Made by a program: the position numbers and the translations under genes
From: a virus
DNA length: 64,000 nucleotides
Direction: 5' to 3' (one strand)
IMG/VR virus record: IMGVR_UViG_3300044675_001894
Span: 32,858-96,857 of that record
The notes under the pieces: model-generated
The model's input: only the letters and a program-made list of their open reading frames with translations
What the model was told of the DNA's origin: nothing
Database searches by the model: none
In this document: one piece after another, positions 1,632 through 44,916 of the stretch
Numbering within the stretch: position 1 is the stretch's first letter
How the letters are laid out: the number at the start of each line of letters is the position of its first letter

Positions 1632-2209
1632 AACTTTTAAATGTTGGTTGTGGAACACACTACGCACAGGGTTGGGTAAACGCAGATACATGGGAAACAG
1701 ATGACACTAAACCAGATGTCAAAGTAACTCCTGGTGAACCATATCCTTTTGAAGACAATACGTTTGATGCCATCTATATGGGACATGTATTGGAGCACAT
1801 TCCTTGGTTAGAAGTATCTACCTTCCTTAAAGATATGCAACGCATTGCTAAACCTAATGCACCGATGCTTATTGTTGGACCCGACGTCCATAAAACTATT
1901 AAGCGATGGAAAGACGGACAAGAGCCATGGTGGCTAGTTGAGTCAGTTATGGAGCATTTAGATGTTCCCGACACACATGTCCCTGGTTTGGAATGGTGGG
2001 ATGGTGCACACCATCATTGGAACTGCCACGAGACAAGAGTTGAGAAGTTATTGACTTCGTTGGAGTTCAATAGCATTGTTAATCAGTTTGATGTAATACC
2101 TAATGATCCAAACGGTAAGTCATGGTTTGACGCAGACAACCAGATTGAATGGCCTGTTGTAGGTAAATACTATTGGCAATTAGCCTTTAGTTGTAAAAAC
2201 CTTATTTAA
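1628..2209 (+). CDS. class I SAM-dependent methyltransferase (Methyltransf_11-like)
   Basis: LNVGCG motif I; PFEDNTFDAIYMGHVLEH. Confidence 0.85.
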   Translation: MKLLNVGCGTHYAQGWVNADTWETDDTKPDVKVTPGEPYPFEDNTFDAIYMGHVLEHIPWLEVSTFLKDMQRIAKPNAPMLIVGPDVHKTIKRWKDGQEPWWLVESVMEHLDVPDTHVPGLEWWDGAHHHWNCHETRVEKLLTSLEFNSIVNQFDVIPNDPNGKSWFDADNQIEWPVVGKYYWQLAFSCKNLI

Positions 2210-2810
2210 TCCAAATACCAAGTCTTTCAACTTCATTACCACTGTCACTAACAAATTTAAAACCTTCTGGCATAGGGTCTGCTTCGTCAAACCACACAGG
2301 GATCATACAAGTGTTACCGTAAGCAAAGTCAGGGTTACCTCTTAAATGAACTTCTATAAGTTTGCCATTAATAAATTCACAATTTATAGTTTTGTATTTA
2401 GTGGTTAGGTGTTTTAAGAAGGTAGGTAATGGGTAAGTCTTACTGGTCTTCTCCCAGTAAATAAACCTGCTGTACGGGTGTTCTGAATGCTTGACACCAA
2501 CAACAGACAGTATTGGCTTACCTAACTCGTAATCAATGCTTAAATGCTCACCTGTAAAGATTTCACACCAAAACTCACCTGGGTGTAGATGATTTGTACT
2601 ATCTGTGAGATACTCAACACGTGCTTTAGCACCCATGCCGTTAATATTCATAACAGGCTTAACAAAGTAGTTATCAGGTTTTGGAACTGTTACACCTGCG
2701 GGACCGCAAGTATGACCAGCATGTCTTGCAACGATTAATTTATCAAAGACCCATAAGTCTTCGTTAGATACAAACCCAATCCACGCAATGGCGTCTAGGG
2801 ATGGTTGCAT
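2202..2810 (-). CDS. ATP-grasp-like protein
   Basis: FVKP, EIFTGEHLSIDY and INCEFINGKLIEVHLR resemble ATP-grasp motifs; start moved to the ATG at 2810. Confidence 0.55.
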   Translation of the reverse strand: MQPSLDAIAWIGFVSNEDLWVFDKLIVARHAGHTCGPAGVTVPKPDNYFVKPVMNINGMGAKARVEYLTDSTNHLHPGEFWCEIFTGEHLSIDYELGKPILSVVGVKHSEHPYSRFIYWEKTSKTYPLPTFLKHLTTKYKTINCEFINGKLIEVHLRGNPDFAYGNTCMIPVWFDEADPMPEGFKFVSDSGNEVERLGIWIK

Positions 2811-2811
2811 A

Positions 2812-3093
2812 CTATTCTTGGTCGTCAGGGATCCCGTTACCGTCTTTGTCTTCACTGTTACGTCCTGTGGAGATCATTAGACCTGCCAACGTACCTGTGA
2901 TAAATGTTGCTACGGAAGAAAGAACACCGAAGAACATCTTGTCATTCTCGGCTTGAGCGCCAATTGGCTGTGTGACGAATACGAGTGCCCAGAGCACACC
3001 GATGGTTGTAATCATGAGAACAAAGCCAAGCATGCATCCGATAACGAACTTAAGGCGAGCATCTAGTTCTGCTGGTGTCATACGCTTTTTCAT
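2812..3093 (-). CDS. two-TM membrane protein
   Basis: Two hydrophobic segments and an acidic DxDGNG tail. Confidence 0.7.
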   Translation of the reverse strand: MKKRMTPAELDARLKFVIGCMLGFVLMITTIGVLWALVFVTQPIGAQAENDKMFFGVLSSVATFITGTLAGLMISTGRNSEDKDGNGIPDDQE

Positions 3094-3314
3094 GGGGCAA
3101 CTGTCTCCTCTGTAGGAACGGTGTCAATAAATAAAGATCCTGAAAGCGGATCAAAGCCGAGCAATACGTCGGGGCATGCTCCATCTACTTCACATGCTGG
3201 TCTTTGGCACTGTGGCGCTTCCCAGTTTTCTGGGTCTTGGCACTCATAACGGTACTTACCGTCATAGCCACAACTTGCAAGCAAAACAACAGAAATAAAA
3301 AGTAGTTTCTTCAC
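3090..3314 (-). CDS. putative lipoprotein
   Basis: Lipobox LASC after a hydrophobic leader; Cys-rich. Confidence 0.7.
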   Translation of the reverse strand: MKKLLFISVVLLASCGYDGKYRYECQDPENWEAPQCQRPACEVDGACPDVLLGFDPLSGSLFIDTVPTEETVAP

Positions 3315-3331
3315 CTACCAATTATAGATGA

Positions 3332-3511
3332 TTAGACCTTAGAGCGCCTCTTGAAGTCCGTGTGGGTACCAAGGTATGAGTAAGTCTCATACTCTGGCTC
3401 TTCTTTAGGTGCTGGCGAGGTGTATTCGTAAGATTCTACAGAGCGCATTACAAAACGATGAAATGAACGAATAGCGAATATAATGGCGGCGGCAATAAAG
3501 AAGGTAGTCAT
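3332..3511 (-). CDS. small membrane protein
   Basis: N-terminal TM segment; TATACT upstream of the chosen start. Confidence 0.5.
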   Translation of the reverse strand: MTTFFIAAAIIFAIRSFHRFVMRSVESYEYTSPAPKEEPEYETYSYLGTHTDFKRRSKV

Positions 3512-3544
3512 AAGGGGTTTAAGTATAACCGATTTGGTCATGAT

Positions 3545-3718
3545 TCATCCTCCATTGGAATAAAAGCCACGACCGACCAGATTGACGGCTGGAGAGAAGT
3601 AGACAGGGCGTAACTGCTCACCGCAGTCTGGACAATTGATTACTTGTTGTTCGTCATAGATACTGCGGGTTTCTTCATGACGGTGGTCATTCCCGCATTT
3701 GTAAGCATATGTTGGCAT
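3545..3718 (-). CDS. FmdB-family zinc ribbon protein (57 aa)
   Basis: Hand-translated MPTYAYKC..H...CPDCG...GRGFYSNGG, the typical FmdB pattern. Confidence 0.8.
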   Translation of the reverse strand: MPTYAYKCGNDHRHEETRSIYDEQQVINCPDCGEQLRPVYFSPAVNLVGRGFYSNGG

Positions 3719-3727
3719 GACAAAAGT

Positions 3728-4096
3728 CTAGTCGTATTGAACGGGGATTTCTGAACGTGGGTTGATGTCATTGGCAACCGCAATGCGGTGGTGCCCATCT
3801 TCAATGACAGGACCTTTGTAATCGGCTCCAGGAAAGTAATCGTACATACGACCACGAACACTGAAAGGATGTTGACCTATTGTGATTGGGTCTTGTACAC
3901 CTTCACTCTTAATTTCATTGTACAAACCTTCAGTTTTTGCTTCTTGTACTTTACGAGAAGTTACTTGAGGAAGATCTTTGTACTTTTGTGGTTTATCAGT
4001 TTCTGGCTGATCTAACGGGATCATATCCATCAACTTGTGTGCAGGGATGAACATAGCCAATTGGGCTTCGTTCAGGACATGCTTCTTTTTACCCAT
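3728..4096 (-). CDS. ParB/sulfiredoxin-like domain protein
   Basis: LYNEIKSEGVQDPI and IEDGHHRIAVA; paralog of 7365-7733. Confidence 0.75.
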   Translation of the reverse strand: MGKKKHVLNEAQLAMFIPAHKLMDMIPLDQPETDKPQKYKDLPQVTSRKVQEAKTEGLYNEIKSEGVQDPITIGQHPFSVRGRMYDYFPGADYKGPVIEDGHHRIAVANDINPRSEIPVQYD

Positions 4097-4551
4097 TAGC
4101 GTTTGTAACGAGCACCTTTTTTACCGAGGTTTACACGACCTAGATTATCAGATACATCCTCACCAGTTTCTGGATCAGTCATGGATCCTGGGCGAATCTT
4201 TAGAGGCTTACCGCCACGCATGCTGGGACCAATGTTCCCTTTGACAAATGTGTTACGTGTCTTAGCACCTGTTGGACTTTCTAAATGCTTTTTAAGTTGT
4301 TGAGCATCTATTGCCATAGCGGCGCCGTCTAATGAAACATTTCGGCTGTGCCCAATAAGACGGCGAGTGTTATCAAGAATGCTGTAAATAGGCTCACCCA
4401 AGGCTTTCATAGCAGGGGTGTGCATATGGACGTTGACGGGCGTGCCTCTAAGACCAATCATGGACTCAGGACTAATAATACGGACAGGTGCTCCACGAAC
4501 AATATGCTCTTCAGAAAACTGAATGCTATTGAAAGCACGCCTACTAGTCAT
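4096..4551 (-). CDS. hypothetical protein
   Basis: 151 aa ORF coupled to its neighbours. Confidence 0.7.
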   Translation of the reverse strand: MTSRRAFNSIQFSEEHIVRGAPVRIISPESMIGLRGTPVNVHMHTPAMKALGEPIYSILDNTRRLIGHSRNVSLDGAAMAIDAQQLKKHLESPTGAKTRNTFVKGNIGPSMRGGKPLKIRPGSMTDPETGEDVSDNLGRVNLGKKGARYKR

Positions 4552-7750: not shown

Positions 7751-8137
7751 TTACTTAACTTCAAGCACATTCTCTGGAGGAATGTGACCCCAGTGCATTG
7801 CTGAACCTGTTTGGCGAAGGCTATTCTTCCAGTCACTAGAATCATCAGTACGTAGTTTAGACTCATCAAAATTTCTATTTACGCTTGTGTGTACAGGATC
7901 CTCAAAGGAGTTCCAGTCCACTTGCAGGTTTCTTGGGTTTACACGGACTTTTACGATTGCTGGGTCTTTGTGCATACTGGCGTAGTGTTCAGCCAATTCA
8001 TGGTCAGGTGTTACATAAACATTGGGCTTACCGAGTCCTGTGCGTGCACCTATCCCATGTTCTTTAATGTCTTGAGCGTTCTCTTTTGAAGTCCCATGGT
8101 ACATATGCATGTGGAACTGGTCGGGACTAAGAGCCAT
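7751..8137 (-). CDS. ADP-ribosyltransferase-like (HYE/Tpt1-like) protein
   Basis: YHGTS....I...G, VYVT....AEHYA and GHIPPENV. Confidence 0.65.
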   Translation of the reverse strand: MALSPDQFHMHMYHGTSKENAQDIKEHGIGARTGLGKPNVYVTPDHELAEHYASMHKDPAIVKVRVNPRNLQVDWNSFEDPVHTSVNRNFDESKLRTDDSSDWKNSLRQTGSAMHWGHIPPENVLEVK

Positions 8138-8275
8138 AGTTTCAAGTATAGGGCTATTTGGGCGGGTTGGGTGGTCGGTCGGATTTTTGGATGGGGCTAT
8201 TGCGGTGGAGCAGTTCGGGTGGGGCCTGTTGTCTACCCCCCGCCTCCGCTCGCCCCCTCACTTAACCATGGGGGG

Positions 8276-8375
8276 TTATCCACAGCCCGCTCCATGCCCT
8301 GTATGGCTCGCATGGGTTATCCACAGGTACCCCTGTGTACAGCCTGTGGATACTGTGGAACATCTCTGTGGAACA
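8276..8375. promoter_or_regulatory. DnaA-box cluster
   Basis: Perfect TTATCCACA at 8276-8284 and 8317-8325; inverted TGTGGATAC at 8345-8353; degenerate TGTGGAACA at 8354 and 8367. Confidence 0.7.
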
Positions 8376-8382
8376 TTGGGGG

Positions 8383-8396
8383 CGAACACCCGTTTG
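8383..8396. promoter_or_regulatory. LexA (SOS) box-like site, Gram-positive type
   Basis: CGAAC-ACCC-GTTTG versus the consensus CGAAC-N4-GTTCG. Confidence 0.5.
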
Positions 8397-8460
8397 TGTG
8401 ACGTTCGTCACGTGTGACCATCGTCACATGGATTGTTCCAATCGTGTGACATTCGTCACA
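8397..8460. promoter_or_regulatory. three CRP/GlxR-type sites
   Basis: TGTGA-N6-TCACG at 8397-8412; perfect TGTGA-N6-TCACA at 8413-8428 and 8445-8460. Confidence 0.7.
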
Positions 8461-8930
8461 AACCCTTGACAAACGCCAAAACGCCTCAGACGCACCACAA
8501 TGCGTTCTCAGAGGAGGAGGGAGGGATGTAAGGGGTCAAGGCGGGCAGTGGTACAAAGTACCCTCAGAGAGGCTCTCGTACGCCTACGAATAGGGCTATG
8601 AGCCTTGCTGGGTAAGGGTTTGCGGGGTATGGGTAGGTTACGAAGTACTCGCCACAGCGCCCCAATTGCTATCCACTGCACACTCGCTCCATATCGGCAC
8701 CTGCACGCAACACAGAGCCTCCTAGGCACCTCTCCTGCCATCCTGCGGTATTCATTGATCAATTGAATTCTGTGGGTATTCATGCCTCCTCTCTCCTGTA
8801 TCTCCTCCTCCATCCGATGGATGGCTGGTCGTTGGGGGCGCCCAATTCCAGCCCTGTCCCCGCCGTCCCGAGGCTCCAGCCCATGCTGGGCAAGGCTCAA
8901 AAGAATTCTCAGGAATTGTTTAATTGGGGG

Positions 8931-8961
8931 TTGACAGATGTACCCCATCTGTGCGTTTAAT
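8931..8961 (+). promoter_or_regulatory. candidate early sigma70-type promoter with an internal inverted repeat
   Basis: TTGACA at 8931-8936 and TTTAAT at 8956-8961 (long 19 nt spacer); ACAGATG-N5-CATCTGT overlaps it. Confidence 0.35.
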
Positions 8962-9216
8962 GGGGGTGGAGGGGGATGCGTCCCCCGCCTCGGTTCCTTG
9001 ACAAGTGGCAGGTACGGCACGCAGGCTTCGCCCTGCGCATTTTGCGTTCCTGCCCTCAGAATCAAACATGGTTCAAAATTCCTCAGCGTCACGGGCTGGC
9101 TTCGGCTGGCTCGTGGCGCTCAATGAGGGCTGGAGGCATTCCCCCTGCTTCAGCCCTGATTGAGCGCACAGCGCTCCATTGGCACACAGCCAATGCAGTC
9201 CTGAGGAGGACACACC

Positions 9217-10194
9217 ATGGATATTCAACTATCAACACTCAATCCTGTGGAACACGATTTGCTGTACATGGAGCGCCTACGGACAGCGTCCAAAGCGAAC
9301 TACCAGTACCGAATCACCAGCCACTACTTGATCAGTGCCTATGGCAAGGAGTTGCGTTGGAGCAATGGCTACGGAAGCCGTGACAGCGTTGCTGTCGTGG
9401 ACTACCGCACCGATCCAATGCCCACCGAATATGCACAAGCACGTCTCATGGAGTTGTACGGCGAAACTGCCGAGGCAATGTTCAATGACGGCGTGGTCGG
9501 CATTTACGGCTCACTGCCAACCCGTGAGGCTGAACGCTTCACTGAGGCTCGTATCGCAATGGAGGATGCACGGCGTGACCTGCGTGAGTGTGACACCGAA
9601 TATGACAGCCGTCCTTGGAGTCGTTACTTCTTGGTCACGTCATCGGATGGGCACATTCACTCCAGCACACAGTGCTCCACCTGCAATAAGGGCGTCAATG
9701 ACACTGAGTTTGCACTCGTGCCTTACCTCAGCGGATCCAGTGCCGATGTTGCGGTTGCCGATCTCGGATCGGCGCTGTGCTCGGTCTGCTTCCCTGATGC
9801 TCCCGTGGAGTCACGTGAGCAGGTCAAGATCAGCGCCAGCGTGGCGTTGACACTTGCCGAGCAGGGCGTGGAGGCATTCCAGCAAGCCCGAGCCAAGGCT
9901 CGTGCGAACGCTGTGAAGCGTGCTCAGGAGCGTTGCGAAGGCAGTGGTCAACCAACGGTCAGAAGTGATCGCTGGCATCATTGCCCAGTATGCGGATATG
10001 GACAGCGTGCGGACGGTAAGTCCCGTGCACATCGCCGTCCTCGCTTCTACGCCACCAAAGAGGTCGGCTACGACACCAAATACTGGAACGGCACCACGTG
10101 GGCGCCATCAACCAAGAAGGTTGACCTACTCACTCGTGAGCAGGCTGAAGCCGTCTTGGTGGCTCACGGTGGCTCACGAGTCATTCAGGATTGA
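9217..10194 (+). CDS. early hypothetical protein with zinc-binding motifs
   Basis: HIH...CSTC, CSVC, CPVC; strong SD. Confidence 0.8.
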   Translation: MDIQLSTLNPVEHDLLYMERLRTASKANYQYRITSHYLISAYGKELRWSNGYGSRDSVAVVDYRTDPMPTEYAQARLMELYGETAEAMFNDGVVGIYGSLPTREAERFTEARIAMEDARRDLRECDTEYDSRPWSRYFLVTSSDGHIHSSTQCSTCNKGVNDTEFALVPYLSGSSADVAVADLGSALCSVCFPDAPVESREQVKISASVALTLAEQGVEAFQQARAKARANAVKRAQERCEGSGQPTVRSDRWHHCPVCGYGQRADGKSRAHRRPRFYATKEVGYDTKYWNGTTWAPSTKKVDLLTREQAEAVLVAHGGSRVIQD

Positions 10195-10200
10195 TCATTC

Positions 10201-10259
10201 CCCCAGCGCCTAGGGCGTGCCCGTTCAATCGGGACTGGGGACTACTGGCACCCGCCAGT
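10201..10259 (+). ncRNA. tRNA-like (T-loop) intergenic RNA element, copy 1
   Basis: CCCCAG/CTGGGG closing stem, CGCC/GGCG hairpin, CCCG-TTCAAT-CGGG arm; covaries with 12098-12156. Confidence 0.55.
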
Positions 10260-10284
10260 TACAACGACCTGAGGAGGTCAAGCC

Positions 10285-10971
10285 ATGAATACAGAAGCAA
10301 TCTACGACAAGGTGCAGGCAATCCTTGATCGTGCCAATCACCCGAACACGCCACAAGCGGAAGCCGAGACGGCTCTCGCCATGGCACAACGGCTCATGAT
10401 GAAGCACGGTCTTGAAGAGTCCGCATTCGCCAAGGCTCAAGATCGTGACGAGAACATCGTTACCGATCAGATCCCAATCAGTGGTCAATGGCAACTTCGC
10501 CGTCTCGGTCTTGCTGGTGCAATCGCTAGTGCCAACTCTGTTGCCAACTACCGCTCCACATCGTGGGCGGATGGCAAGAAGTCGTTGGTGTTGGTGGTGT
10601 ACGGCACTGCTGGTGACATCTTCGCTGTCAAGACACTGTTTGCATCGGCAGACTTGCTCGCTTCTCGTGTGATCCCAAAGGGTGATCGGTCATTCCGCAA
10701 TGCGTGGTGGCTCGGATTCTCCTCGGGAGTGCGTGAGGTGTTGCGCAAGTCCAAGAACGAAGTGATCGCAGAGCAAGGTGCTGGCACTGGGCTGGTGCTC
10801 GCTGACAAGTTCAAGCGTGCAGACGCTGAGATGCGTTCAAAAGTCAAACTCAAGTCCAGTGGGTACTACAGGTACTCATCGGGTAACGGTTACAACGCTG
10901 GTCGTTCTGCTGGTCGTTCGTTCAACACTGGTGGCATCGGTAACGGTGTCGCTGGAGCGCTCGGACGATGA
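10285..10971 (+). CDS. DUF2786-domain protein
   Basis: KVQAILDRA.....AEAETALAMAQRLMMKHGL; GY.AGR C-terminus. Confidence 0.8.
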   Translation: MNTEAIYDKVQAILDRANHPNTPQAEAETALAMAQRLMMKHGLEESAFAKAQDRDENIVTDQIPISGQWQLRRLGLAGAIASANSVANYRSTSWADGKKSLVLVVYGTAGDIFAVKTLFASADLLASRVIPKGDRSFRNAWWLGFSSGVREVLRKSKNEVIAEQGAGTGLVLADKFKRADAEMRSKVKLKSSGYYRYSSGNGYNAGRSAGRSFNTGGIGNGVAGALGR

Positions 10972-11444
10972 GCATCCATGCATACATGGAGGTAGTGCGG
11001 GAGGGCGTTGCAAAGCGCTCTCCCAAAATGCCCGAACATCAAGCCACGGTGTATGCAATTGAGAATGTGGTGGAGCGTCACTTGCCATCGCAAGTGATCG
11101 CTACCAAGAACGCATTCGCTTGGCTGGATCGTGTGTGTGAGACCGAAGGCTGGGACACGCCGATGGTTGATCGCATCCGATCCACCAAGTGGGCAGGTGT
11201 CGCTAGTGCCGAAGGCAATGTCATCGGCATCAGTGGCTCCAGCACGACAGCACTGGTACTGGCTCACGAACTCGCTCACATCGTGTGTGGCGAGCGTGGT
11301 CACAATGAGTGTTGGCGTAATGCGTTCGTGAACATCGTCCGAGATCACATCTCGGTACAGCATGCGTCACTCCTGCATACCTTGTACGAGCGTTTCCAAC
11401 TTCAATCAGGTCAGTGGAGGCTGACCGACACATCACGAGTGTGA
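10968..11444 (+). CDS. HExxH metallopeptidase-like protein
   Basis: LAHELAH......GH; adjacent to DUF2786, a known pairing in Actinobacteria. Confidence 0.75.
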   Translation: MSIHAYMEVVREGVAKRSPKMPEHQATVYAIENVVERHLPSQVIATKNAFAWLDRVCETEGWDTPMVDRIRSTKWAGVASAEGNVIGISGSSTTALVLAHELAHIVCGERGHNECWRNAFVNIVRDHISVQHASLLHTLYERFQLQSGQWRLTDTSRV

Positions 11445-11509
11445 ACTCGTGGTGCTGTCATGGCTCATCGGCGCAAGTTGGTGAGTCATGACAGCATCAT
11501 CCGATGCTG
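11427..11509 (+). ncRNA. multi-hairpin intergenic RNA leader
   Basis: GUGA-capped hairpin, a 22 bp GCAA-capped stem with G-U pairs, and an overlapping third hairpin. Confidence 0.6.
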
Positions 11510-11535
11510 AATAAAGCGACCTGAGGAGGTCAACC

Positions 11536-12090
11536 ATGAAAACATCAGAGATCAAGCAGATCATTGCCAAGGATCCGAACGCCGTGTTTCGCATTGGCGG
11601 TCGTGGTCGGTACACGCACTACGGCTCAATCACAGAGATTAAAGAAAATGTCGTGGACACTTACAGCAGTTGGGGTCGCAAGACGGGCACCCGTGTCAAT
11701 GTGTTATTCACAGTGCGTTACGAGTACTTCACTAGTGGCACTGAGGCTCATTACGGCTACCCCGAGAAGTTGCCTTCAGTAACACTGGAGCGCAACACTT
11801 GGACTAAGCCACGTGACATTGAATGGCACGTGTCGGACTTCGGTCAGACCATTGAAGAATATGTGGTAACGACTGACGCCGAAGTGAAGGCTGACTGGCA
11901 GGCAAAGAAGGACAATGACAATGCCAAACAACAACTGATCAACCGAATTCTCAACGACTTCGGAATCGTGTTGAGTGTGGGTGATGAAGCCACTGACAAG
12001 CGCTGGGATCACCTAAACGATGAGTTGGACAGACTCAGCCTTGACACATTGAAAATGCTTGTACACAACTACACACCTTCACGGGTGTGA
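11536..12090 (+). CDS. early hypothetical protein
   Basis: 184 aa ORF with RBS hairpin. Confidence 0.8.
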   Translation: MKTSEIKQIIAKDPNAVFRIGGRGRYTHYGSITEIKENVVDTYSSWGRKTGTRVNVLFTVRYEYFTSGTEAHYGYPEKLPSVTLERNTWTKPRDIEWHVSDFGQTIEEYVVTTDAEVKADWQAKKDNDNAKQQLINRILNDFGIVLSVGDEATDKRWDHLNDELDRLSLDTLKMLVHNYTPSRV

Positions 12091-12097
12091 TTGGTTC

Positions 12098-12156
12098 CCC
12101 TAGCGCCTCGGGCGTGCCGATTCAATTCGGACTAGGGACTGTGAGCACTCGCTCAC
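12098..12156 (+). ncRNA. tRNA-like (T-loop) intergenic RNA element, copy 2
   Basis: CCCTAG/CTAGGG, CGCC/GGCG and CCGA-TTCAAT-TCGG. Confidence 0.55.
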
Positions 12157-12182
12157 TACAAAATACCTGAGGAGGTATAGCC

Positions 12183-12506
12183 ATGGCATATCAACTAACA
12201 GACTGGGATCTAGAGCAGATCACTGACACGCTGGACATGTATGAAGCGGGCACCGTGAGGCGGTACTCGGGTCGTGCGATGTACGGCGAGCAGTGTCTCG
12301 GCATCGTGACCGAAGATGTGGCATCAGCATTCATGATCCTCGGATCAGCACTCGCTGACTTGGGCAATGACGGTAACGCATTGACAAGAAAACTTCTTCG
12401 TGAAGTGCGCCAAGACAGCATGGGTCGTGACTCAGCCGTTGTCTACTTCCCATCCATCACAATGCCCGAGGGTTACGTGGAGGGTGACGAAGACAGCGAC
12501 AACTAG
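12183..12506 (+). CDS. early hypothetical protein
   Basis: YSGRAMYG..CLG and DSMGR...VYFP; RBS hairpin. Confidence 0.8.
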   Translation: MAYQLTDWDLEQITDTLDMYEAGTVRRYSGRAMYGEQCLGIVTEDVASAFMILGSALADLGNDGNALTRKLLREVRQDSMGRDSAVVYFPSITMPEGYVEGDEDSDN

Positions 12507-12520
12507 TCGTAAGTGGTAGT

Positions 12521-12603
12521 CGGGAGCATCACGGGTTCGCCCGTGATGCCCTCACAGTGCATCGGCGTTGTGTCGGTGCATTGTGAGGGCATACAATTGC
12601 CCG
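12521..12603 (+). ncRNA. multi-hairpin intergenic RNA leader
   Basis: GCATCACGGG-TTCG-CCCGTGATGC plus a 21 bp second stem and an overlapping third. Confidence 0.6.
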
Positions 12604-12632
12604 TTCAACTAATAAGACCTGAGGAGGTCACC

Positions 12633-12887
12633 ATGGATGCAACTATTCACAAAGTAACTGGGCTTCGGATTGAGAAGACTGGTGACTCACGACTCCACAC
12701 GATTGATCTCGTGATTGAGTACGAAGACTTGGCGTTCAGCCGTCCCCAGTGGGAGCAGGACAACGAGTCATTCGGTTACGCAAAGTTGGAGTCAACGATC
12801 ACGCTCTTCATCAGTGACACCGCTGATATTGAGACAGTGTTGTGGAAGGCGATCGCAGATCTCACTTCCGACCTTGCCAATGCGTGA
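12633..12887 (+). CDS. early hypothetical protein
   Basis: Start reassigned to the ATG after the RBS hairpin at 12616. Confidence 0.75.
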   Translation: MDATIHKVTGLRIEKTGDSRLHTIDLVIEYEDLAFSRPQWEQDNESFGYAKLESTITLFISDTADIETVLWKAIADLTSDLANA

Positions 12888-12897
12888 GTAATGAGCA

Positions 12898-12976
12898 ATG
12901 GGCAGTCATGGCGCAAGCCATGGCGTGCTCGGAGTGCACTGACCCCCATCGGTGCATTCCGAGGACGCAAGTCCAT
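12898..12976 (+). ncRNA. multi-hairpin intergenic RNA leader
   Basis: GTCATGGC-GCAA-GCCATGGC, long stem, GGAC-GCAA-GTCC; close sibling of 13746-13818. Confidence 0.6.
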
Positions 12977-13015
12977 ACTTAGTAATTCAAAACAGAATCT
13001 GAGGAGGTTCTTACC

Positions 13016-13741
13016 ATGGGTGCAATAACACCAAAACAGCAAGCGTTCATTCGCACAATGCTCCTTGAGCGTGCTTCAACACTCGGTCTTGATGAGGCTG
13101 GCGTTGATCAGTACATCATTGATCAGAAGGTGAATGAGTTGTCAAACAAGTCAGCGTCCACCGTCATTGATGCGATCAAACGCATTGAAATCAAGCGTGT
13201 GGGCACCGATCACTTGCCGAAGGCAGAGCGCACCATTGTCAACAAGTATGCGAACCCGTGCACATTGTGCGGTCATCCTGTACCTGTTGGTGCTGGTCAT
13301 GCATTGCTTATCGGTGGCAAGTGGCAGACGTACCACGCACTCGGTCAGTGCTCCAGCGAAACTGCTGTAGCGCCCGAGCGTGTGAGCAATGAGTTGTTCG
13401 GGACATTGCCTGATGGCTTCTATGCAATGAAGTCAACGGGCACCAATGACCTCGTGTTCTATGCGGTGAAGACAAACAAGGGTTTTCATGATCCGAAGTT
13501 CAAGGGTCACCGCTCCATCTACCTGATCGTAGGTGGACACAAGGACGAGCGACTCACTGGTGAGCGTGGCGTGAACGCTGTGAAGCGTCTCGTAGCGCTC
13601 AACGATGCAGAGCGTGTGCAGGCACGAGCACTGTACGGTCAAGAGATCGGACGGTGTGGTGTGTGCGGGCGTCATCTCACTGATGAGGCAACACGCAAGC
13701 GAGGCATCGGCAATGACTGCGCAAGCAGGTTGGGCATCTAG
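13016..13741 (+). CDS. DUF6011-like zinc-finger protein
   Basis: C-terminal CGVCGRHLTD..TRKRGIG.DCA. Confidence 0.75.
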   Translation: MGAITPKQQAFIRTMLLERASTLGLDEAGVDQYIIDQKVNELSNKSASTVIDAIKRIEIKRVGTDHLPKAERTIVNKYANPCTLCGHPVPVGAGHALLIGGKWQTYHALGQCSSETAVAPERVSNELFGTLPDGFYAMKSTGTNDLVFYAVKTNKGFHDPKFKGHRSIYLIVGGHKDERLTGERGVNAVKRLVALNDAERVQARALYGQEIGRCGVCGRHLTDEATRKRGIGNDCASRLGI

Positions 13742-13745
13742 CCCA

Positions 13746-13818
13746 AGGATGTCATGGCGTAAGCCATGGCGTCCTCACAACACATCGGGCAACTGGTGTG
13801 CTGTGAGGACGCAAGTCC
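13746..13818 (+). ncRNA. multi-hairpin intergenic RNA leader
   Basis: GTCATGGC-GTAA-GCCATGGC, long stem, GGAC-GCAA-GTCC. Confidence 0.6.
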
Positions 13819-13848
13819 ACTAACAATTACCTGAGGAGGTAACAGACC

Positions 13849-15381
13849 ATGAATACACAACTAGGAGAACTAAGCGCATTGCTTAGTCGTGTTGAGCGTG
13901 TAGCGCCAGCCATCACGGCTGACCCTGCGCTCCATGCGTTAAGCAGTGCTCACGATGGCGAAGTCGCTGTAGACCTCGCCCAACCTCTCTTCCCATTCCA
14001 GCGTGCTGGTGTGGCGTATGCACTCAAGCAACGCCGTGCCATCATCGGAGATGAGATGGGGCTGGGTAAGACTCCACAAGGCATCGCAGTAGCAGTGCAC
14101 GCACACAAGGAGGGACACAAAGTCCTCGTTGTAGTGCCACCATCGCTCCGCATCAACTGGCAACGCTCCTTCGCACTGTTCGCACCGTGGCTCTCAACAG
14201 CCATTGTGTCGGGCAACAAGGTGACGGCTCTTCCCAAAGCAGATGTGCTCATTATTGGTGACAGCATCATTGACACTTGGTCAGTGAGGCTCGTCAATGC
14301 CAAGTTCGGCGCACTGATCGTGGACGAGGCACACCGTGCGAAGAATGCAAAGTCAGGACGCACCAAGGGCATCGCACATATCGCAAAGTCAATCCCGACT
14401 GAAGGATATGTGACGCTCTTGAGCGGAACGATCATCGTGAACCGTCCGAACGAATTGGTCTCGCCATTGTCAATCATTGGCAGGCTTGACCGAGTGTTCG
14501 GTGGTAAGTCAGCGTTCCTGTTTCGTTACTGTGACCCGATCCACAACGGCTGGGGTTACGTGTATAACGGAGCAACCAACACCACTGAGTTGAACGACAA
14601 ATTGCGTGGCACCTGCTACGTGAGGCGTAACAAGTCAGATGTGTTGAAGGAACTACCTGCCAAGCGCCGTGCTCAGGTTGCTACCGAGATCAGCAACACC
14701 GATCTCGTGGCATATCGCTCTGCCGAAGAGAACTTCCGTGACTTCGTCATCGCCAATGGCGGTGTTGAAGCGTGGCAGAGAGCCTCTAAGGCTGAAGTGA
14801 TTACACGCTTGAATGCATTGCGCAGGTTGCTAGGCATCGCCAAGATCCCGTATGTGGTTGAGCACGTAGAAGAACTTGTCGCACAAGGCGAGAAGGTCAT
14901 CGTGTTCGCACACCACAAAGAAGTCATCGCACAACTAAGCAGTGCTCTTCATGAGCACGGCGTAGTCAAGGTGGCTGGCGGACTCAGCGATGTGCAGAAG
15001 CAGGAAGCAGTTGACGCATTCCAAACTGGTAGCGCCAAGGTGTTCATCGGACAATTTCAATCCGCTGGTGTTGGTCTCACATTGACCGCATCATCGCATG
15101 TCGTGTTCGCTGAATTGCCATGGGAGCCAGCCTCCGCAGTACAAGCCGAAGACCGTGCGCATCGCATCGGTCAAGACAACGCTGTGGTGGCATGGTGGCT
15201 ACTGGCTGTAGACAACACAAGCGAGATCCCAACAGTGGACGATCGCATGTGGGCGCTACTGAATGCCAAACACGAGACAGTCTCGGCTGTCTTGACGGGG
15301 CATGGTGAGGACATGGGCGCCGAGGGTGCGACAAGCATCACTCAATCGCTCATTGAAGGCATCATCGGCAACGGAGGTTGA
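13849..15381 (+). CDS. SNF2-family (HARP-like) helicase
   Basis: DEMGLGKT, DEAH, LSGT, GVGLTLT and QAEDRAHRIGQ. Confidence 0.92.
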   Translation: MNTQLGELSALLSRVERVAPAITADPALHALSSAHDGEVAVDLAQPLFPFQRAGVAYALKQRRAIIGDEMGLGKTPQGIAVAVHAHKEGHKVLVVVPPSLRINWQRSFALFAPWLSTAIVSGNKVTALPKADVLIIGDSIIDTWSVRLVNAKFGALIVDEAHRAKNAKSGRTKGIAHIAKSIPTEGYVTLLSGTIIVNRPNELVSPLSIIGRLDRVFGGKSAFLFRYCDPIHNGWGYVYNGATNTTELNDKLRGTCYVRRNKSDVLKELPAKRRAQVATEISNTDLVAYRSAEENFRDFVIANGGVEAWQRASKAEVITRLNALRRLLGIAKIPYVVEHVEELVAQGEKVIVFAHHKEVIAQLSSALHEHGVVKVAGGLSDVQKQEAVDAFQTGSAKVFIGQFQSAGVGLTLTASSHVVFAELPWEPASAVQAEDRAHRIGQDNAVVAWWLLAVDNTSEIPTVDDRMWALLNAKHETVSAVLTGHGEDMGAEGATSITQSLIEGIIGNGG

Positions 15382-15459
15382 TCGTGGGCGCTCGGCGCCT
15401 CATGGTCGGCGCCAGTAGCGACAGACGATGTGTTCTTGTCCTCACGAGAACCCATCACA

Positions 15460-15543
15460 GTGCATCACGGGCGCAAGCCCGTGGTGTTCTGACAGTACAT
15501 TGGCACACCGCTTGTGTACTGTCAGAACATCACCCGATGTTCA
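15460..15543 (+). ncRNA. multi-hairpin intergenic RNA leader
   Basis: GCATCACGGGC-GCAA-GCCCGTGGTGT, long stem, GAACATC/GATGTTC. Confidence 0.6.
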
Positions 15544-15567
15544 AGTAACAACGCCTGAGGAGGCACC

Positions 15568-15804
15568 ATGAAAGTAAGTCAAGCAATCAAGTTATTGAGT
15601 GAGATCAACCCTGACGAAGAGATCGCTATCTCTTGGTGGGAATCAAACTTGTTCACTGACAAAGACAACAACCAACTATTGGCAGACTCAGAACTGTGGC
15701 TCAAGGCAGTCGCAGTGTTTGACGCCAACGGTGGTTACGACAGCGTCAACCAATTGGTATGGGATTACCTCAATTACGACATCAATCAAGAAGGAGAGTT
15801 TTAA
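15568..15804 (+). CDS. early hypothetical protein
   Basis: Acidic 78 aa ORF with RBS hairpin. Confidence 0.75.
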   Translation: MKVSQAIKLLSEINPDEEIAISWWESNLFTDKDNNQLLADSELWLKAVAVFDANGGYDSVNQLVWDYLNYDINQEGEF

Positions 15805-16047
15805 ATGGACATTTCAGAAGCAATTCAAACAATGATCACTAATCGCCACCTCAAAGAACACGAAATAGTGGTGAGGTGGTCGTGGTGCGACATCCAAGCG
15901 ATGTACCCACAGTGGACAGAAGACCAATGCCGAGATGCCCTGTATGAAGTTGACGATTATGTACACGAGAGAATCGTGGAACTCGGCAACGATGTGTTGA
16001 AGCAACTTGTATACGAAATCGTTGAAACGAAATGGGAGAGTGAATAA
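15805..16047 (+). CDS. early hypothetical protein
   Basis: AGGAG SD; coupled. Confidence 0.7.
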   Translation: MDISEAIQTMITNRHLKEHEIVVRWSWCDIQAMYPQWTEDQCRDALYEVDDYVHERIVELGNDVLKQLVYEIVETKWESE

Positions 16048-16352
16048 TGAACAACATCGGAACACCAATCGGTGCATGGGCAATCATCAAGTGGTATGAC
16101 TCAGGCATTGAGAGCGAGGTATTCATCTCGTTCGGTACATGGAATGAGAACGAGTGGAACGGCGAGTTTGACTCGTTCGGGAATCGTGACGATGAGGTCT
16201 TCTTCTACTGCGAAGGTGGAGAAGAGGAACTCAAGTCGCTCATGGGTGACAGCAAGGAAGACTTCGTGGTCATCAACTACGCAGTTGACTACAGCATCCC
16301 GCTCGTGCTCGCTGACATGGACGAGCCAGTATTCAAGGAGGAAGCACAATGA
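16047..16352 (+). CDS. early hypothetical protein
   Basis: Acidic; TAATG coupling. Confidence 0.7.
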   Translation: MNNIGTPIGAWAIIKWYDSGIESEVFISFGTWNENEWNGEFDSFGNRDDEVFFYCEGGEEELKSLMGDSKEDFVVINYAVDYSIPLVLADMDEPVFKEEAQ

Positions 16353-16612
16353 TCGGTACAAAGAGTTGGCTACTGACAGGTTGTTATGTAGACGGCACAC
16401 ACGGCGTCTACAGCGCCATGGAAGCGTGCAGGATCGCACGAGAACTCGGATGGGATGGGCAACAGCCCACAGACATTGAGGACTCGTGGTACCAAGAAGA
16501 GGTAGCCACGGAATGGCTGAACGAAATGATCGCTGATGATGGTCACTCGTTCGGCTGGCATGACGCCGAATACTTCTACATGCCACAAGCATGGTGGGAG
16601 GATGTCGCTTGA
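16349..16612 (+). CDS. early hypothetical protein
   Basis: ATGA coupling; AGGAGG SD. Confidence 0.7.
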   Translation: MIGTKSWLLTGCYVDGTHGVYSAMEACRIARELGWDGQQPTDIEDSWYQEEVATEWLNEMIADDGHSFGWHDAEYFYMPQAWWEDVA

Positions 16613-16697
16613 TCGGGAGCATCACGGGCTACGGCTCGTGGTGTCCTCACAGCCCATAAATCATATTTGTGGGTTGTGAGGGCACTCAGTGCCCGAT
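16612..16697 (+). ncRNA. multi-hairpin intergenic RNA leader
   Basis: ATCGGG...CCCGAT closing stem; UACG-capped hairpin; long stem. Confidence 0.6.
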
Positions 16698-16731
16698 AAA
16701 TTAATTAATCCCTATGACCTGAGGAGGTCTT

Positions 16732-17091
16732 ATGTTAGAGCCAGTAATCACGATGACCGTTGAGCAATGGGAAGAGCAATACGAACCCTTTGTCAATCAC
16801 CTAGATGCAGATGCATCATGGGCAACCGATGACGCCAACGGCATCATGTTTGAAACGTACGGTGCCGAAGTTGATTATGTGTTTGCCCGACCGCTCAACC
16901 ACACATGGACATATGTGGATGGCGAAGAGGGCACATACATTATTGCTGGACGCCATCTCGTAAATCGCATCGGTTACTTCGTAACTGCGGTGCCATGGAA
17001 GGATGACTTCAACACCAAGTATGAAATTCAAGTAAGCGCCAATGATGATTATTACCAAACAGTGTTAGACCTTGAAGGAGGTAGCAAATGA
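16732..17091 (+). CDS. early hypothetical protein
   Basis: FETYG.E and VNRIGYFVT; RBS hairpin. Confidence 0.8.
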   Translation: MLEPVITMTVEQWEEQYEPFVNHLDADASWATDDANGIMFETYGAEVDYVFARPLNHTWTYVDGEEGTYIIAGRHLVNRIGYFVTAVPWKDDFNTKYEIQVSANDDYYQTVLDLEGGSK

Positions 17092-17309
17092 GCAAGATCA
17101 GTTTTGACAATGTGGATGAAGGTACCGAGGTAGAAGTACTCGTGCAGATATCCCCGAGGGAGACATTCCCGTACACAGGGATCGTTTCACGAGTCAGTGA
17201 CACCGAGTTGTCAATGTGGACTACAGACAGTCCGAACGACACTTACGAGACCGAGCGTGAGATTGATATTCCAATCGCAAAGATCCTTGAACTGGACATC
17301 TTTGAATAA
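17088..17309 (+). CDS. early hypothetical protein
   Basis: Coupled; AGGAGG SD. Confidence 0.7.
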   Translation: MSKISFDNVDEGTEVEVLVQISPRETFPYTGIVSRVSDTELSMWTTDSPNDTYETEREIDIPIAKILELDIFE

Positions 17310-17472
17310 TGAATCGTTAAGCGAGTCCTGAGAGGCTTGTACGAAGGGTGGCATCAGCCTCGGCTGGTGTCATCCCGTGGATGCTCTGCTTCCTATAGGG
17401 GGTCAGCGGAGCGTCCACGGGGTGAGGCAACTGTGCAACACCTGTACATAACAATGATCTGAGGAGGTCAAA

Positions 17473-17718
17473 ATGAGTAAATGGAATGTAACGGTCTCGC
17501 TCCAAACGGGCGTGTACCTAAAAGAAGTCATTGCAAATGATCCATCAACATTGATTGAGGGAGACCTCAATGAAGCAGATGTGATCAAAGCATTGATTGA
17601 GCAATTGCAGTCGGGTGATTCAACACTGGACTGGGTAGTGGAAGAAGTGCAAACACTGGACGGTCGTGTCGTGCGGTTTGACGATGAGGATCGTGTATGG
17701 CTCGGAGATGCAGTATGA
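17473..17718 (+). CDS. early hypothetical protein
   Basis: RBS hairpin. Confidence 0.7.
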   Translation: MSKWNVTVSLQTGVYLKEVIANDPSTLIEGDLNEADVIKALIEQLQSGDSTLDWVVEEVQTLDGRVVRFDDEDRVWLGDAV

Positions 17719-17921
17719 GCAAAGGCTGGGTCACACAGATCGTCATGCTTCTCGGTGTCACGGAGATGGAAGCCGAACAGATTGACAAGTACGCCCTTGA
17801 AGAAGGGCTGTACAACGAGATAGACAGCAGTGAAGCCAGTGTGGCAGAACTTAAAGGGTTCTACGCAATGGTTAGCGATGAGTACAGAAGAGCAAACAAC
17901 ATTGAAACAAAGAGCCTTTAG
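17715..17921 (+). CDS. early hypothetical protein
   Basis: ATGA coupling. Confidence 0.6.
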   Translation: MSKGWVTQIVMLLGVTEMEAEQIDKYALEEGLYNEIDSSEASVAELKGFYAMVSDEYRRANNIETKSL

Positions 17922-17932
17922 GAGGGCACAAC

Positions 17933-19150: not shown

Positions 19151-20176
19151 ATGTCAAGAGAAACCAGCCAGTGGCTCAACCAGAACGTTCTGGTGGGCTT
19201 CACATCCAAGCGTGGAAATGCATGGCACTACAAGGCAACTGAACAAGGAACCGAGCCAAACCATTATGAGCAGGCGATCCCTGTTGAAGATGTGCGCAGG
19301 CGTTTGTTCAACTGGCAGGCTGTTGAAGCACCAGTGTTCGTTCAAGTTCCTGACAACGCTGGAGTCAACCGTTACATTGCGCAGAATGACCGCAAGGCAA
19401 TTGTTCGCAACGACACCTATGAGACTCTCGGTCTCTTCAAGGACTCGTATCAGATCCACCAGTACAACGAGTGGTTGATCGGAACCATCAGCAACATCAT
19501 TGATGACAGCAACCTTCAGATCGGCTCTGCGGGCTTGCTCCGCAACGGTGGAGTTGCTTGGGTCAGCATTGAGATGCCTGAGACAGTTCAGACCAAGGCG
19601 GGCTTTGAGTTCCGTCCTCACCTACTCGGAACTACGAGCCACAACGGCACACTTGCCACCACCTTCAAGCGCACAGTCACCGCTGTGGTGTGTGACAACA
19701 CGCTTGCTGGAGCACTTGGTGAGAGCGGATCAGAGTTCAAGACCCGTCACAGCAAGTTCAGCAACGGACGCATCCAAGACATCCGTGATGCTCTCGGAAT
19801 CATCCACACCATGGCAGACGAAGTCAGCCTTGAGATTGAGCGCTTGTCATCATTGACAGTCACCCAGTCTGAATGGGATGCCATCGTTGACCGCTTGGTG
19901 CCAGTGAGTATCACTGATGATGCTCGCCCTCAAGCCGTGAGCCGTGCTCAGAACAAGCAAGAGTTGATCCGTCACCTCTACAAGAATGACCCACGCTGTG
20001 CTCCATGGGTTGGTACCCAACTCGGAGTGTTGCAGGCATTCAACACATGGACTCACCACTTCAGTGGCAAGGACGAGTCCCGTGTAGAGCGCAACGCAAT
20101 GAATGCACTCAACGGCAAGACCGATGAGTTTGACCGTCAGGTGCTTCGCATCATGAATGACGTGGTACTCGTATGA
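19151..20176 (+). CDS. DUF932 family protein
   Basis: AWH, SAG.LRNG, TSHNGT and VVCDNTL. Confidence 0.88.
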   Translation: MSRETSQWLNQNVLVGFTSKRGNAWHYKATEQGTEPNHYEQAIPVEDVRRRLFNWQAVEAPVFVQVPDNAGVNRYIAQNDRKAIVRNDTYETLGLFKDSYQIHQYNEWLIGTISNIIDDSNLQIGSAGLLRNGGVAWVSIEMPETVQTKAGFEFRPHLLGTTSHNGTLATTFKRTVTAVVCDNTLAGALGESGSEFKTRHSKFSNGRIQDIRDALGIIHTMADEVSLEIERLSSLTVTQSEWDAIVDRLVPVSITDDARPQAVSRAQNKQELIRHLYKNDPRCAPWVGTQLGVLQAFNTWTHHFSGKDESRVERNAMNALNGKTDEFDRQVLRIMNDVVLV

Positions 20177-20565
20177 CCGAAGCGCTGGTGGGGGAGCAAT
20201 CCCCCACCTATGCTCGGGACACCGAATACACAGCCTTACCATTCCCCGAAGTGATGGCGGAATGGAGATCGCAAGCCAAGTGCAAAGATGAAGACGGATC
20301 ACTGTGGTTTGCCAGCAAGCCGAAAGGCATTAACAACTCATCCATCAAAGGAAGAATTGTTAACAGCCGTAGGAAGCGGGCACAGCGTATTTGTAAAGTG
20401 TGTCCTGTTCAGTATGAATGCCTGCGCTACGCCGTCTTGAATGACTTCAGGGATGGCATATGGGCTGGTTATGAAATGGATGACCTCACACATACAGACC
20501 GTCAAGTACTTCGTCAGCGTATTAAACGAGCAGAACGAAAGTTAAGTAAGACTGTCAATAAGTGA
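20173..20565 (+). CDS. whiB: WhiB-family transcription factor
   Basis: W...A.C...ICKVCPVQYECL.YA.....GIWAG. Confidence 0.85.
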   Translation: MTEALVGEQSPTYARDTEYTALPFPEVMAEWRSQAKCKDEDGSLWFASKPKGINNSSIKGRIVNSRRKRAQRICKVCPVQYECLRYAVLNDFRDGIWAGYEMDDLTHTDRQVLRQRIKRAERKLSKTVNK

Positions 20566-34542: not shown

Positions 34543-34932
34543 TTAAACTCCCCAACTAGATCCGTCGCCTTGTGAAAACCTTCCGTTCCAACCACACGCA
34601 TAACAACGTGGTGCTGGCTGTGCTCCGTTGATCATACTGTTTGATCCTCGTCCTACACGGCTAAATACATAAATACTTCCGCATTCAGGACAAGTTGAGT
34701 TGCCTTCTTTACGAGCCGCTTCTCCACCTTTCCACAAGCGAATTGCATCACTCATGTTTAGTTGGTCAGTCGGTAAACGATTAGGGTCTAACAACTCTTG
34801 GTTACCCTGTTGTACTTGCTGTTGTGGTTGTGCAACAGGGAAATTTAGAACAGGAGAAGTTGGGGGTGTTGCATACGTGCGAGGTGTTGTTGGCTTCTCC
34901 CCTGCAATCTTTTTACTCCACCAGTCACTCAT
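34543..34932 (-). CDS. zinc-ribbon protein
   Basis: CPECGS...RCYACGW. Confidence 0.7.
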   Translation of the reverse strand: MSDWWSKKIAGEKPTTPRTYATPPTSPVLNFPVAQPQQQVQQGNQELLDPNRLPTDQLNMSDAIRLWKGGEAARKEGNSTCPECGSIYVFSRVGRGSNSMINGAQPAPRCYACGWNGRFSQGDGSSWGV

Positions 34933-44718: not shown

Positions 44719-44765
44719 ACTGCTCCTCAGGTTGTTATCTAGGGTCGCCATGCTACACTCTCGCT

Positions 44766-44901
44766 AGTCGCTTTAGCACTTCCCTGATCGGGTGCTAAAG
44801 TGGGCATAGTGTTGGGGGGAGGGCGACCTCCTCAGGAAATACAGAGCAAGGGTCTTTCCCTCCTTTCTGCCCTTGCCCTTGTTAACGGCCCTCCCTTCAA
44901 C
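44766..44901 (+). ncRNA. putative anti-Shine-Dalgarno small RNA
   Basis: Extended -10 TGcTACACT at 44751-44759; 13 bp and 14 bp stems with G-U pairs; exposed GACCTCCTCAGG and CCTCCTTTCT. Confidence 0.6.
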
Positions 44902-44916
44902 CGCTAAACTATGTTC

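Follow-up and report, generated by a model that had tools for sequence, protein, structure and literature searches.

Start-associated sequences (SAS) have been known in actinophages since 2011 and occur in cluster K mycobacteriophages, where they read GGGATAGGAGCCC (PMC3203893), and in cluster EF Microbacterium phages, where they read GGGAAAGGACCCC (PMC7302621). Their role was still called unknown in 2024-2025 (PMC11373665, PMC12699233). Here we describe a repeated hairpin that holds the Shine-Dalgarno (SD) sequence of a set of phage genes, in a 64,000-nucleotide stretch of viral DNA (IMG/VR record IMGVR_UViG_3300044675_001894, positions 32,858 to 96,857; hereafter the window). Like SAS, this is an asymmetric motif with an SD core, present in about 10-19 copies that lie 3-9 nt before the starts of non-structural genes, with a bias towards ATG, conservation that goes beyond 16S rRNA pairing, a link to an upstream element and actinobacterial hosts. 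The outer bases of SAS are themselves symmetric (GGG...CCC) and SAS are tied to an upstream 'extended' element (ESAS). As with the SAS of K1 phages, there is also a single reversed copy that is not at a gene start (window 44827-44835). The resemblance to cluster K SAS, which had been suggested in an earlier note made from the sequence alone, is therefore close in position, copy number, ATG bias and the single reversed copy.

The two systems also differ in several respects. The sequences are unrelated, since our consensus is not within 2 mismatches of GGGATAGGAGCCC or GGGAAAGGACCCC; the stem covaries here, whereas SAS are invariant; the element upstream is here an RNA-processing module, in contrast to the promoters reported for ESAS; and the phage belongs to a different family, being a 97-kb myovirus from freshwater or wastewater. 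The hairpin is thus a functional analogue of SAS, not a sequence member, and represents a new variant with a demonstrated hairpin. With moderate confidence, we favour the explanation that it is a standardised, insulated ribosome-binding site (RBS) that acts in an SAS-like manner and has probably been co-opted as the target of an anti-SD RNA.

A covarying hairpin that holds the Shine-Dalgarno sequence

Ten + strand copies of the motif core, CTGAGGAGG, lie between 9201 and 17467, and the - strand has a single copy (44835-44827). These 11 matches in the window compare with 0.39 expected from a dinucleotide-preserving shuffle, and none of 100 shuffles reached 11. The remaining part of the 96,857-bp virus genome outside the window holds no further copy, so the count over the genome stands at 10 + strand copies and one reversed. 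All ten + strand copies fall within 9.2-17.5 kb and the structural genes have none. In each of them NN-CCU closes on AGG-N'N' around a GAGG loop, with an ATG 4-9 nt downstream of the hairpin, and the hairpin consensus in this family is (G)ACCTGAGGAGGT(C). The ten copies listed in the earlier note, together with a UAGG variant at 17914, were correct in both coordinates and sequence (Table 1). They had been described as shared by ten early genes; the + strand hairpins are indeed present, 'early' is a reasonable guess for the + strand block that contains them, and within this block the hairpin is limited to the first gene after a long (90-190 nt) structured gap. The short-gap genes of the same block (10968, 15805, 16047, 16349 and 17088) have plain SDs.

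Scanning of viral contigs with a 14-mer revealed many relatives with 4-12 copies each, and the window copies together with those of related contigs gave an alignment of 105 distinct hairpins. In the window, pair -2/+1 is complementary in 10/10 copies and pair -3/+2 in 9/10. Across the alignment, pair -2/+1, which adjoins the invariant CCU/AGG, is AU in 65 copies, GC in 22, UA in 8 and CG in 6, and pair -3/+2 is GC in 49, UA in 18 and AU in 12, while the fourth pair and those further outward are at the background level of 24%. Overall, pairing holds in 95% of cells, and doubly changed cells number 68 compared with 18.1 +/- 3.3 after shuffling, a value that none of 500 shuffles reached; when the partner is shifted by one column, pairing falls to 45-53%. 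The proposal that the outer base pairs change jointly and that the hairpin itself is selected is therefore borne out among homologues. Compensated switches are also seen in front of the same gene in different phages (GAC..UC versus UAC..UA, AAU..UU or UCC..GA), and the pair in front of the gene behind the 16716 hairpin is G-C in the window, G.U in one relative (L008) and A-U in another (L085). Moreover, the base that faces the final G of the core (position -1) is a C in 92 of the 105 copies and a U in a further 12, despite a flank that is 47% A. A pyrimidine opposite G in 104/105 copies implies an RNA hairpin on the sense strand. Folding of 133 native 200-nt contexts gave a median probability of 0.95-0.97 for stem formation, with the loop unpaired at 0.98-0.99. 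The motif is, hence, a sense-strand RNA hairpin of 5 bp, sometimes 6-7.

These features bear on whether the motif could instead operate at the DNA level, either as a stoperator-like repressor site or as a conserved linker whose sole role is to provide a recombination boundary for cassette shuffling. Contigs of related strains do join or diverge exactly at the motif (a joint of 15548 to 12615, and loose ends at 9219 and 12635), and identical cassettes precede different genes in relatives. We nevertheless consider a DNA-level element highly improbable, because position -1 shows U.G but no A.C, G-C and A-U are bridged by a G.U intermediate, the GAGG at the centre lacks palindromic symmetry and the distance to the ATG is fixed; recombination at the cassettes is likely a consequence and not the selected function. 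More broadly, related-strain contigs diverge, join or delete whole genes at motif or gap borders (9219, 12615-12635, 15548, 12091-12519 and 15804-16056), indicating that the cassettes are also mosaic boundaries. Cluster A stoperators, and T4-type promoter-early stem-loops (PeSL) as mobile regulatory cassettes, resemble the present motif in being short oriented repeats between non-structural genes, in cassettes that mark mosaic boundaries. However, those act on DNA and transcription, whereas here we find a sense-strand RNA signature and a fixed ATG distance.

The properties of the hairpin as a ribosome-binding site are uniform. The start behind the aligned copies is ATG in 99/105, and the spacing from GGAGG to the start is 4-8 nt in 96/105. 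The SD can pair with a Gram-positive-type 16S tail over 8 bp, at about -12 to -13 kcal/mol, and the stem, at -5.7 to -7.4 kcal/mol, varies little among copies; the cost of opening the stem offsets the long SD pairing, so that net SD strength is ordinary and uniform. CCU is invariant although 16S pairing does not account for its conservation. The observation that CCTG is not complementary to 16S rRNA was essentially right, as only the G of CCUG can pair, in a G.U wobble. The upstream linker is 47% A, 24% C, 19% U and 10% G, in agreement with its description as A/C-rich.

Conservation of this kind might also reflect a protein that binds or cuts the hairpin, either a repressor of phage or host origin or an endoribonuclease like T4 RegB or RegA. 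An invariant loop with covarying stems is typical of protein-bound hairpins, GGAG lies within the motif, and the motif is regulon-wide, as are the GGAG or GGA elements in or near SDs that RegB and CsrA recognise. The suggestion of a CsrA- or RegB-type operator nevertheless gained no support, since a profile search found no CsrA homologue in the phage genome and there was no match to PF10715 (RegB). The CsrA site is A(N)GGA presented in a loop, whereas the GAGG loop here splits GGA between loop and stem, and T4 RegB cuts GG/AG in early SDs, an enzyme that this phage does not have. No candidate RNA-binding protein was found, and the fixed ATG distance and full SD are explicable without a protein, making this alternative unlikely.

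Table 1. Positions of SD hairpins, gap modules, hammerhead arrays and features of the 44.8-kb locus (window coordinates unless a relative is named)
Feature	Position	Strand	Basis or remarks
SD hairpin GUCCU-GAGG-AGGAC	9198..9211	+	ATG 9217; dG -7.4
SD hairpin GACCU-GAGG-AGGUC	10266..10279	+	ATG 10285 (DUF2786 protein); pair probability 0.97-0.99 in 200-nt context
SD hairpin GACCU-GAGG-AGGUC	11518..11531	+	ATG 11536
SD hairpin AUACCU-GAGG-AGGUAU, 6 bp	12163..12178	+	ATG 12183
SD hairpin GACCU-GAGG-AGGUC	12616..12629	+	ATG 12633
SD hairpin AGAAUCU-GAGG-AGGUUCU, 7 bp, one U.G	12994..13011	+	ATG 13016 (DUF6011 protein)
SD hairpin UUACCU-GAGG-AGGUAA	13827..13842	+	ATG 13849 (SNF2 helicase)
SD hairpin GCCU-GAGG-AGGC, 4 bp	15553..15564	+	ATG 15568
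SD hairpin GACCU-GAGG-AGGUC	16716..16729	+	ATG 16732
SD hairpin UGAUCU-GAGG-AGGUCA, one U.G	17455..17470	+	ATG 17473
Variant hairpin GCCUU-UAGG-AGGGC, in short gap	17914..17927	+	Direct reading of sequence
Structured module before first copy	9093..9197	+	Folding; long perfect hairpins or three-way junction, then A/C-rich linker
Structured modules with compact three-way junction (10195-10240, 12091-12140) and T-loop-like UUCAAU hairpin	10195-10265, 12091-12162	+	Folding
Structured modules with two or three long perfect hairpins (13-26 bp) per gap	11445-11517, 12507-12615, 12888-12993, 13742-13826, 15382-15552, 16613-16715, 17310-17454	+	Folding
Hammerhead arrays between early genes, one per gap, then SD hairpin	L165 (G013:90000-94948) 877-4099; L069 2442-2501; L097 8900-13450
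Conserved structured RNA, leader of small operon 44911/44917-45350	44766..44908	+	Homologue comparison, folding
TGCTACACT, candidate extended -10 for the 44.8-kb RNA	44751..44759	+	Kept in all homologues and G013; putative promoter element
Replication-initiator RBS CCUGAGGAGC, non-hairpin core variant	44722..44731	-	4 nt before true start ATG 44718

Probable RNA-processing modules upstream of the hairpin

Each copy had been thought to follow an unstructured spacer. The A/C-rich linker is there, but an upstream module had been missed: the ten gap modules of the window fold with minimum free energies of -37 to -95 kcal/mol, and a scan for sigma-70-like promoters and terminators found none in these ten gaps and no enrichment. 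The nature of the modules became apparent from relatives. In a complete relative (G013, 94,948 bp), 8 gaps of the homologous block contain type II hammerhead ribozymes whose catalytic core is complete; 1 gap of another relative (L069) contains one more, and all of them end 14-24 nt upstream of the SD-hairpin core. A lower-GC group (L097, L089, L075 and L020) carries type I cores (CUGAUGAG, stem, CGAAAC, stem, GUC) with a predicted cut 14-19 nt upstream of the SD-hairpin core. Other gaps in hammerhead-bearing genomes contain hairpin modules like those of the window. The presence of hammerheads in the same slot in relatives implies that these are RNA-processing cassettes of which the SD hairpin is the constant downstream part, and we infer that the gaps of the window are also processing sites and that the hairpin would belong to the short leader of each cut message.

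In the window, two of the modules are compact three-way junctions that fill the hammerhead slot and are candidates for RNase P-type processing or for an undescribed ribozyme. Seven contain long perfect hairpins, likely RNase III substrates according to prediction. Many of the gap hairpins are built on CCCUCACA...UGUGAGGG. The AGUCCUGAGAGGCU hairpin at 17310-17423 (+) was considered as a PyrR binding site and rejected, as it scored below threshold; a PyrR-site match in the relative L008 reached 38.8 bits against a gathering score of 54.

Arrays of hammerheads are known to flank phage and prophage genes and have been proposed to cut long transcripts into single-gene mRNAs (Perreault et al. 2011, PMC3088659). 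In both cases ribozymes lie between the genes of a long phage transcript, but a standard SD hairpin coupled to them is not described there, and, unlike in the arrays of PMC3088659, the window has other structures in place of the ribozyme. The order of elements in our cassettes is RNA-processing module, A/C-rich and G-poor linker, SD hairpin and ATG, with the module being a hammerhead in relatives and, in the window, long hairpins or a tRNA-like three-way junction that presumably serve as host RNase sites. The arrangement is also like that of RiboJ, an engineered ribozyme-plus-hairpin insulator reportedly developed by Lou and colleagues in 2012, where a ribozyme, a small hairpin and then the RBS give a defined leader.

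Under the explanation we favour, the block is most likely expressed as one long transcript that would be processed to single-cistron or otherwise short messages, the 5' ends of which would fall a few tens of nucleotides upstream of the hairpin. The stem would hold the 3' half of the long SD while the GAGG of the loop presents its 5' half, giving every processed cistron the same context-insulated ribosome-binding site and keeping the purine-rich SD from mispairing with the CCUC-rich upstream module. Binding of the 30S subunit could then start at the loop and melt the weak stem. This insulating role is suggested by analogy with the engineered insulators.

A position close to the predicted new 5' ends could also mean that the hairpin, or a ribosome sitting on a strong SD, guards the message from 5'-end decay by RNase J or RNase E, in the manner of Gram-positive STAB-SD elements and 5' stabilisers. 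The short distance from the type I cut to the core and the unusually long SD are compatible with such protection. On the other hand, an unpaired 5' stretch of ~10-15 nt would remain in front of the hairpin, and the covarying stem is left unexplained if ribosome binding suffices. Ribozyme products carry a 5'-OH and are already poor substrates for RNase J and RNase E, which also counts against a stabiliser. We consider this role improbable.

A conserved RNA that contains the reversed copy

The replication-initiator gene and a small two-gene + strand operon diverge from a gap that contains the single reversed copy, within a conserved structured RNA at 44.8 kb. This RNA has a hairpin (44769-44802) and a 17-bp outer stem, which encloses GACCUCCUCAGG (44825-44836), unpaired except for a 3-bp mini-stem, and a further hairpin whose loop UCUUUCCCUCCUUUCU (44853-44868) mimics the 3' end of 16S rRNA. 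In some relatives the same loop reads UUUACCUCCUUUCU, which is the 3' end of 16S rRNA. The RNA also includes a CCUCCUCAGG segment. A set of 9 distinct sequences shows pairing in 100% of cells and double changes in 9 pairs, compared with 3.7 +/- 1.2 after shuffling; the consensus fold is -48.7 kcal/mol on the + strand, with all pairs kept via G.U, versus -34.4 kcal/mol with A.C breaks on the - strand. An Rfam 15 search, with E up to 10, found no match (for example to 6C), and a covariance model of the RNA gave 0 matches in five fragmentary contigs that do not include that region.

Over 12 nt, the exposed GACCUCCUCAGG segment is perfectly complementary to the consensus hairpin, 3 nt more than the 9-mer that located the reversed copy, and the duplexes predicted between this RNA and the ten hairpin regions are worth -23 to -30 kcal/mol, versus -12 to -13 kcal/mol for the 16S tail. 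Three complete genomes (G000, G011 and G012) have 10, 6 and 4 forward copies; each has exactly one reversed copy, which in every case falls within the 44.8-kb RNA, and a further relative (G001) also carries the RNA. It is therefore possible, and we put this forward tentatively, that the hairpin is mainly the operator of a 44.8-kb anti-SD RNA: the loops would kiss, the 12-nt duplex would spread over the SD, and the ten messages together with the initiator RBS would be silenced, perhaps with RNase III cleavage. The stem would then be kept since kissing needs a presented loop, and an operator would also accommodate the loop G that is invariant though 16S pairing does not need it. A parallel is found in the cluster K phage Anaya, where the one reversed SAS occupies a 10-nt hairpin loop in a structured gap that is conserved.

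Against this alternative stands the complete relative G013, which has 15 hairpins without a reversed copy, the 16S-mimic loop or CCTCCTTTC. The maintenance of hairpins in a genome that lacks the RNA implies that the hairpin does not depend on it and has its own function. In addition, the low-GC group is represented by fragments only, and the reversed copy may act in cis for the adjacent operon. The earlier proposal of an operator for a small RNA at 44.8 kb thus stands in part: a conserved + strand RNA with an exact 12-nt complement is real, but in G013 the hairpins occur without it. A reversed variant, CCTCCTAAG, in a hairpin loop of one G013 early gap was considered as a stand-in anti-SD and discarded, as 95 kb of sequence should contain such a 9-mer, with its one free position, by chance.

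The 44.8-kb RNA is best regarded as a second layer, specific to one lineage, on the proposed insulated ribosome-binding hairpin. In this lineage only, the RNA probably pairs with the hairpins (loop GAGG against CCUC), shutting the genes off together; that such RNA-RNA pairing would take place in vivo is suggested by the complementarity. Host SDs or the neighbouring initiator RBS could be further targets of the RNA. Antisense RNAs and RNAs with C-rich loops that bind SD regions include the c4 RNA of P1/P7, CopA/CopT with its kissing interaction, RsaE/RoxS and the actinobacterial 6C RNA. The 44.8-kb RNA is like these in having C-rich unpaired segments complementary to SDs and in that loop-loop pairing is possible, but it has no sequence or Rfam relation to them, one of its loops copies the 16S 3' end and about 10 trans targets share one site.

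Several points weigh against the combined explanation that we prefer. The lack of the reversed copy and of its RNA in G013 weakens the second layer, and the cluster EF Microbacterium phage AnnaSerena has SAS but no reversed copy, indicating that a single reversed copy is not universal. Insulation is an argument from design, and an SD hairpin could lower translation instead. The type II hammerhead matches are slightly under the Rfam gathering score (RF02276, 28-36 bits against 37, E 1e-4 to 2e-2), and the type I cores are a sequence pattern with very weak RAGATH-1 matches; the hammerheads are nonetheless credible because their position repeats and their cores are intact. The hammerhead core (CUGAnGA, GAAA and a UH cut site around three stems; Rfam CL00010) was seen in relatives only. 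In the window, hammerhead and other ribozyme families gave no match with Rfam E up to 10; nothing reached gathering scores, and the hits at this cutoff were hairpin matches at chance level. Finally, the public runs with the phage are assembled contigs, probably from DNA, and it is from sequence that we infer processing in the window.

Anaya (JF704106) has 16 forward copies of SAS and 1 reversed, the latter at 59870-59882 (34871-34883 in our extract L167) in a 10-nt hairpin loop, CCUCCUAUCC. The gp96-gp97 gap that holds it is highly structured (z = -7.3) and is kept in 128 cluster K records, with + strand G.U pairs and two compensated pairs. This gap is a possible anti-SAS RNA, and a partner loop of this kind recurs in two unrelated phage groups without being universal.

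Other features of the hairpins and of the 44.8-kb locus are as follows. In lineages with the anti-SD RNA, the 2 nt before the ATG are mostly CC (49/99 copies), whereas in G013 and the low-GC group mostly UC or UU directly precedes the ATG; common descent may account for this, or the G-run of the 44.8-kb RNA may gain additional pairs. G013-type relatives have CCUAAGGAG at the site of the initiator RBS. An upstream ATG at 44751 was rejected as the initiator start, as that frame is closed in G001. The initiator gene itself (44233-44718, - strand) contains four to five GTGACACTAC iterons (44325-44415) in its 3' half, as in lambda O/ori.

The phage and a possible wider role of start-associated hairpins

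The genome encodes a WhiB-like factor (20173-20565), a family A DNA polymerase, DnaB, two SNF2 helicases, a lambda-O-like initiator, a tail sheath and baseplate J. The WhiB-like factor marks it as an actinophage, and judging by its gene content the phage is a myovirus of an actinobacterium. Close-strain contigs come from wastewater and freshwater runs. Megablast of 50,697 phage records with the block as query gave no match and tblastn with the SNF2 helicase retrieved relatives at <=36% identity only, indicating that there is no cultured relative. The + strand block (9.2-20.6 kb) consists of small genes of unknown function and lies between - strand blocks. Upstream, the ~1.1 kb of 8137-9216 has no convincing gene, its open reading frames being without a family match, and contains three TTGACA boxes (8467, 8932 and 8999) and a terminator-like hairpin (9020-9037). 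From these sequence features, it is likely the control region of the + strand block.

Covariation shows that the hairpin acts as RNA on the message, which cluster K could not show, and the partnership with processing modules, including hammerhead arrays, ties the motif to the leaders of cut messages. The cassettes are a natural counterpart of designed ribozyme-plus-hairpin insulators, and a candidate partner is at hand in a conserved RNA that exposes a segment exactly complementary to the site and also copies the 16S 3' end. A more speculative generalisation, which we regard as doubtful, is that SD hairpins and one anti-SD RNA constitute a general translational switch of actinophages, in which loop-loop pairing silences processed early messages. 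If true, the logic of such a switch would also explain cluster K SAS, where a hairpin loop holds the reversed copy. Should the 44.8-kb RNA indeed silence the set, this would be a phage device that switches off a class of genes through one shared ribosome-binding site, and the so far unexplained start-associated sequences of actinophages become testable.

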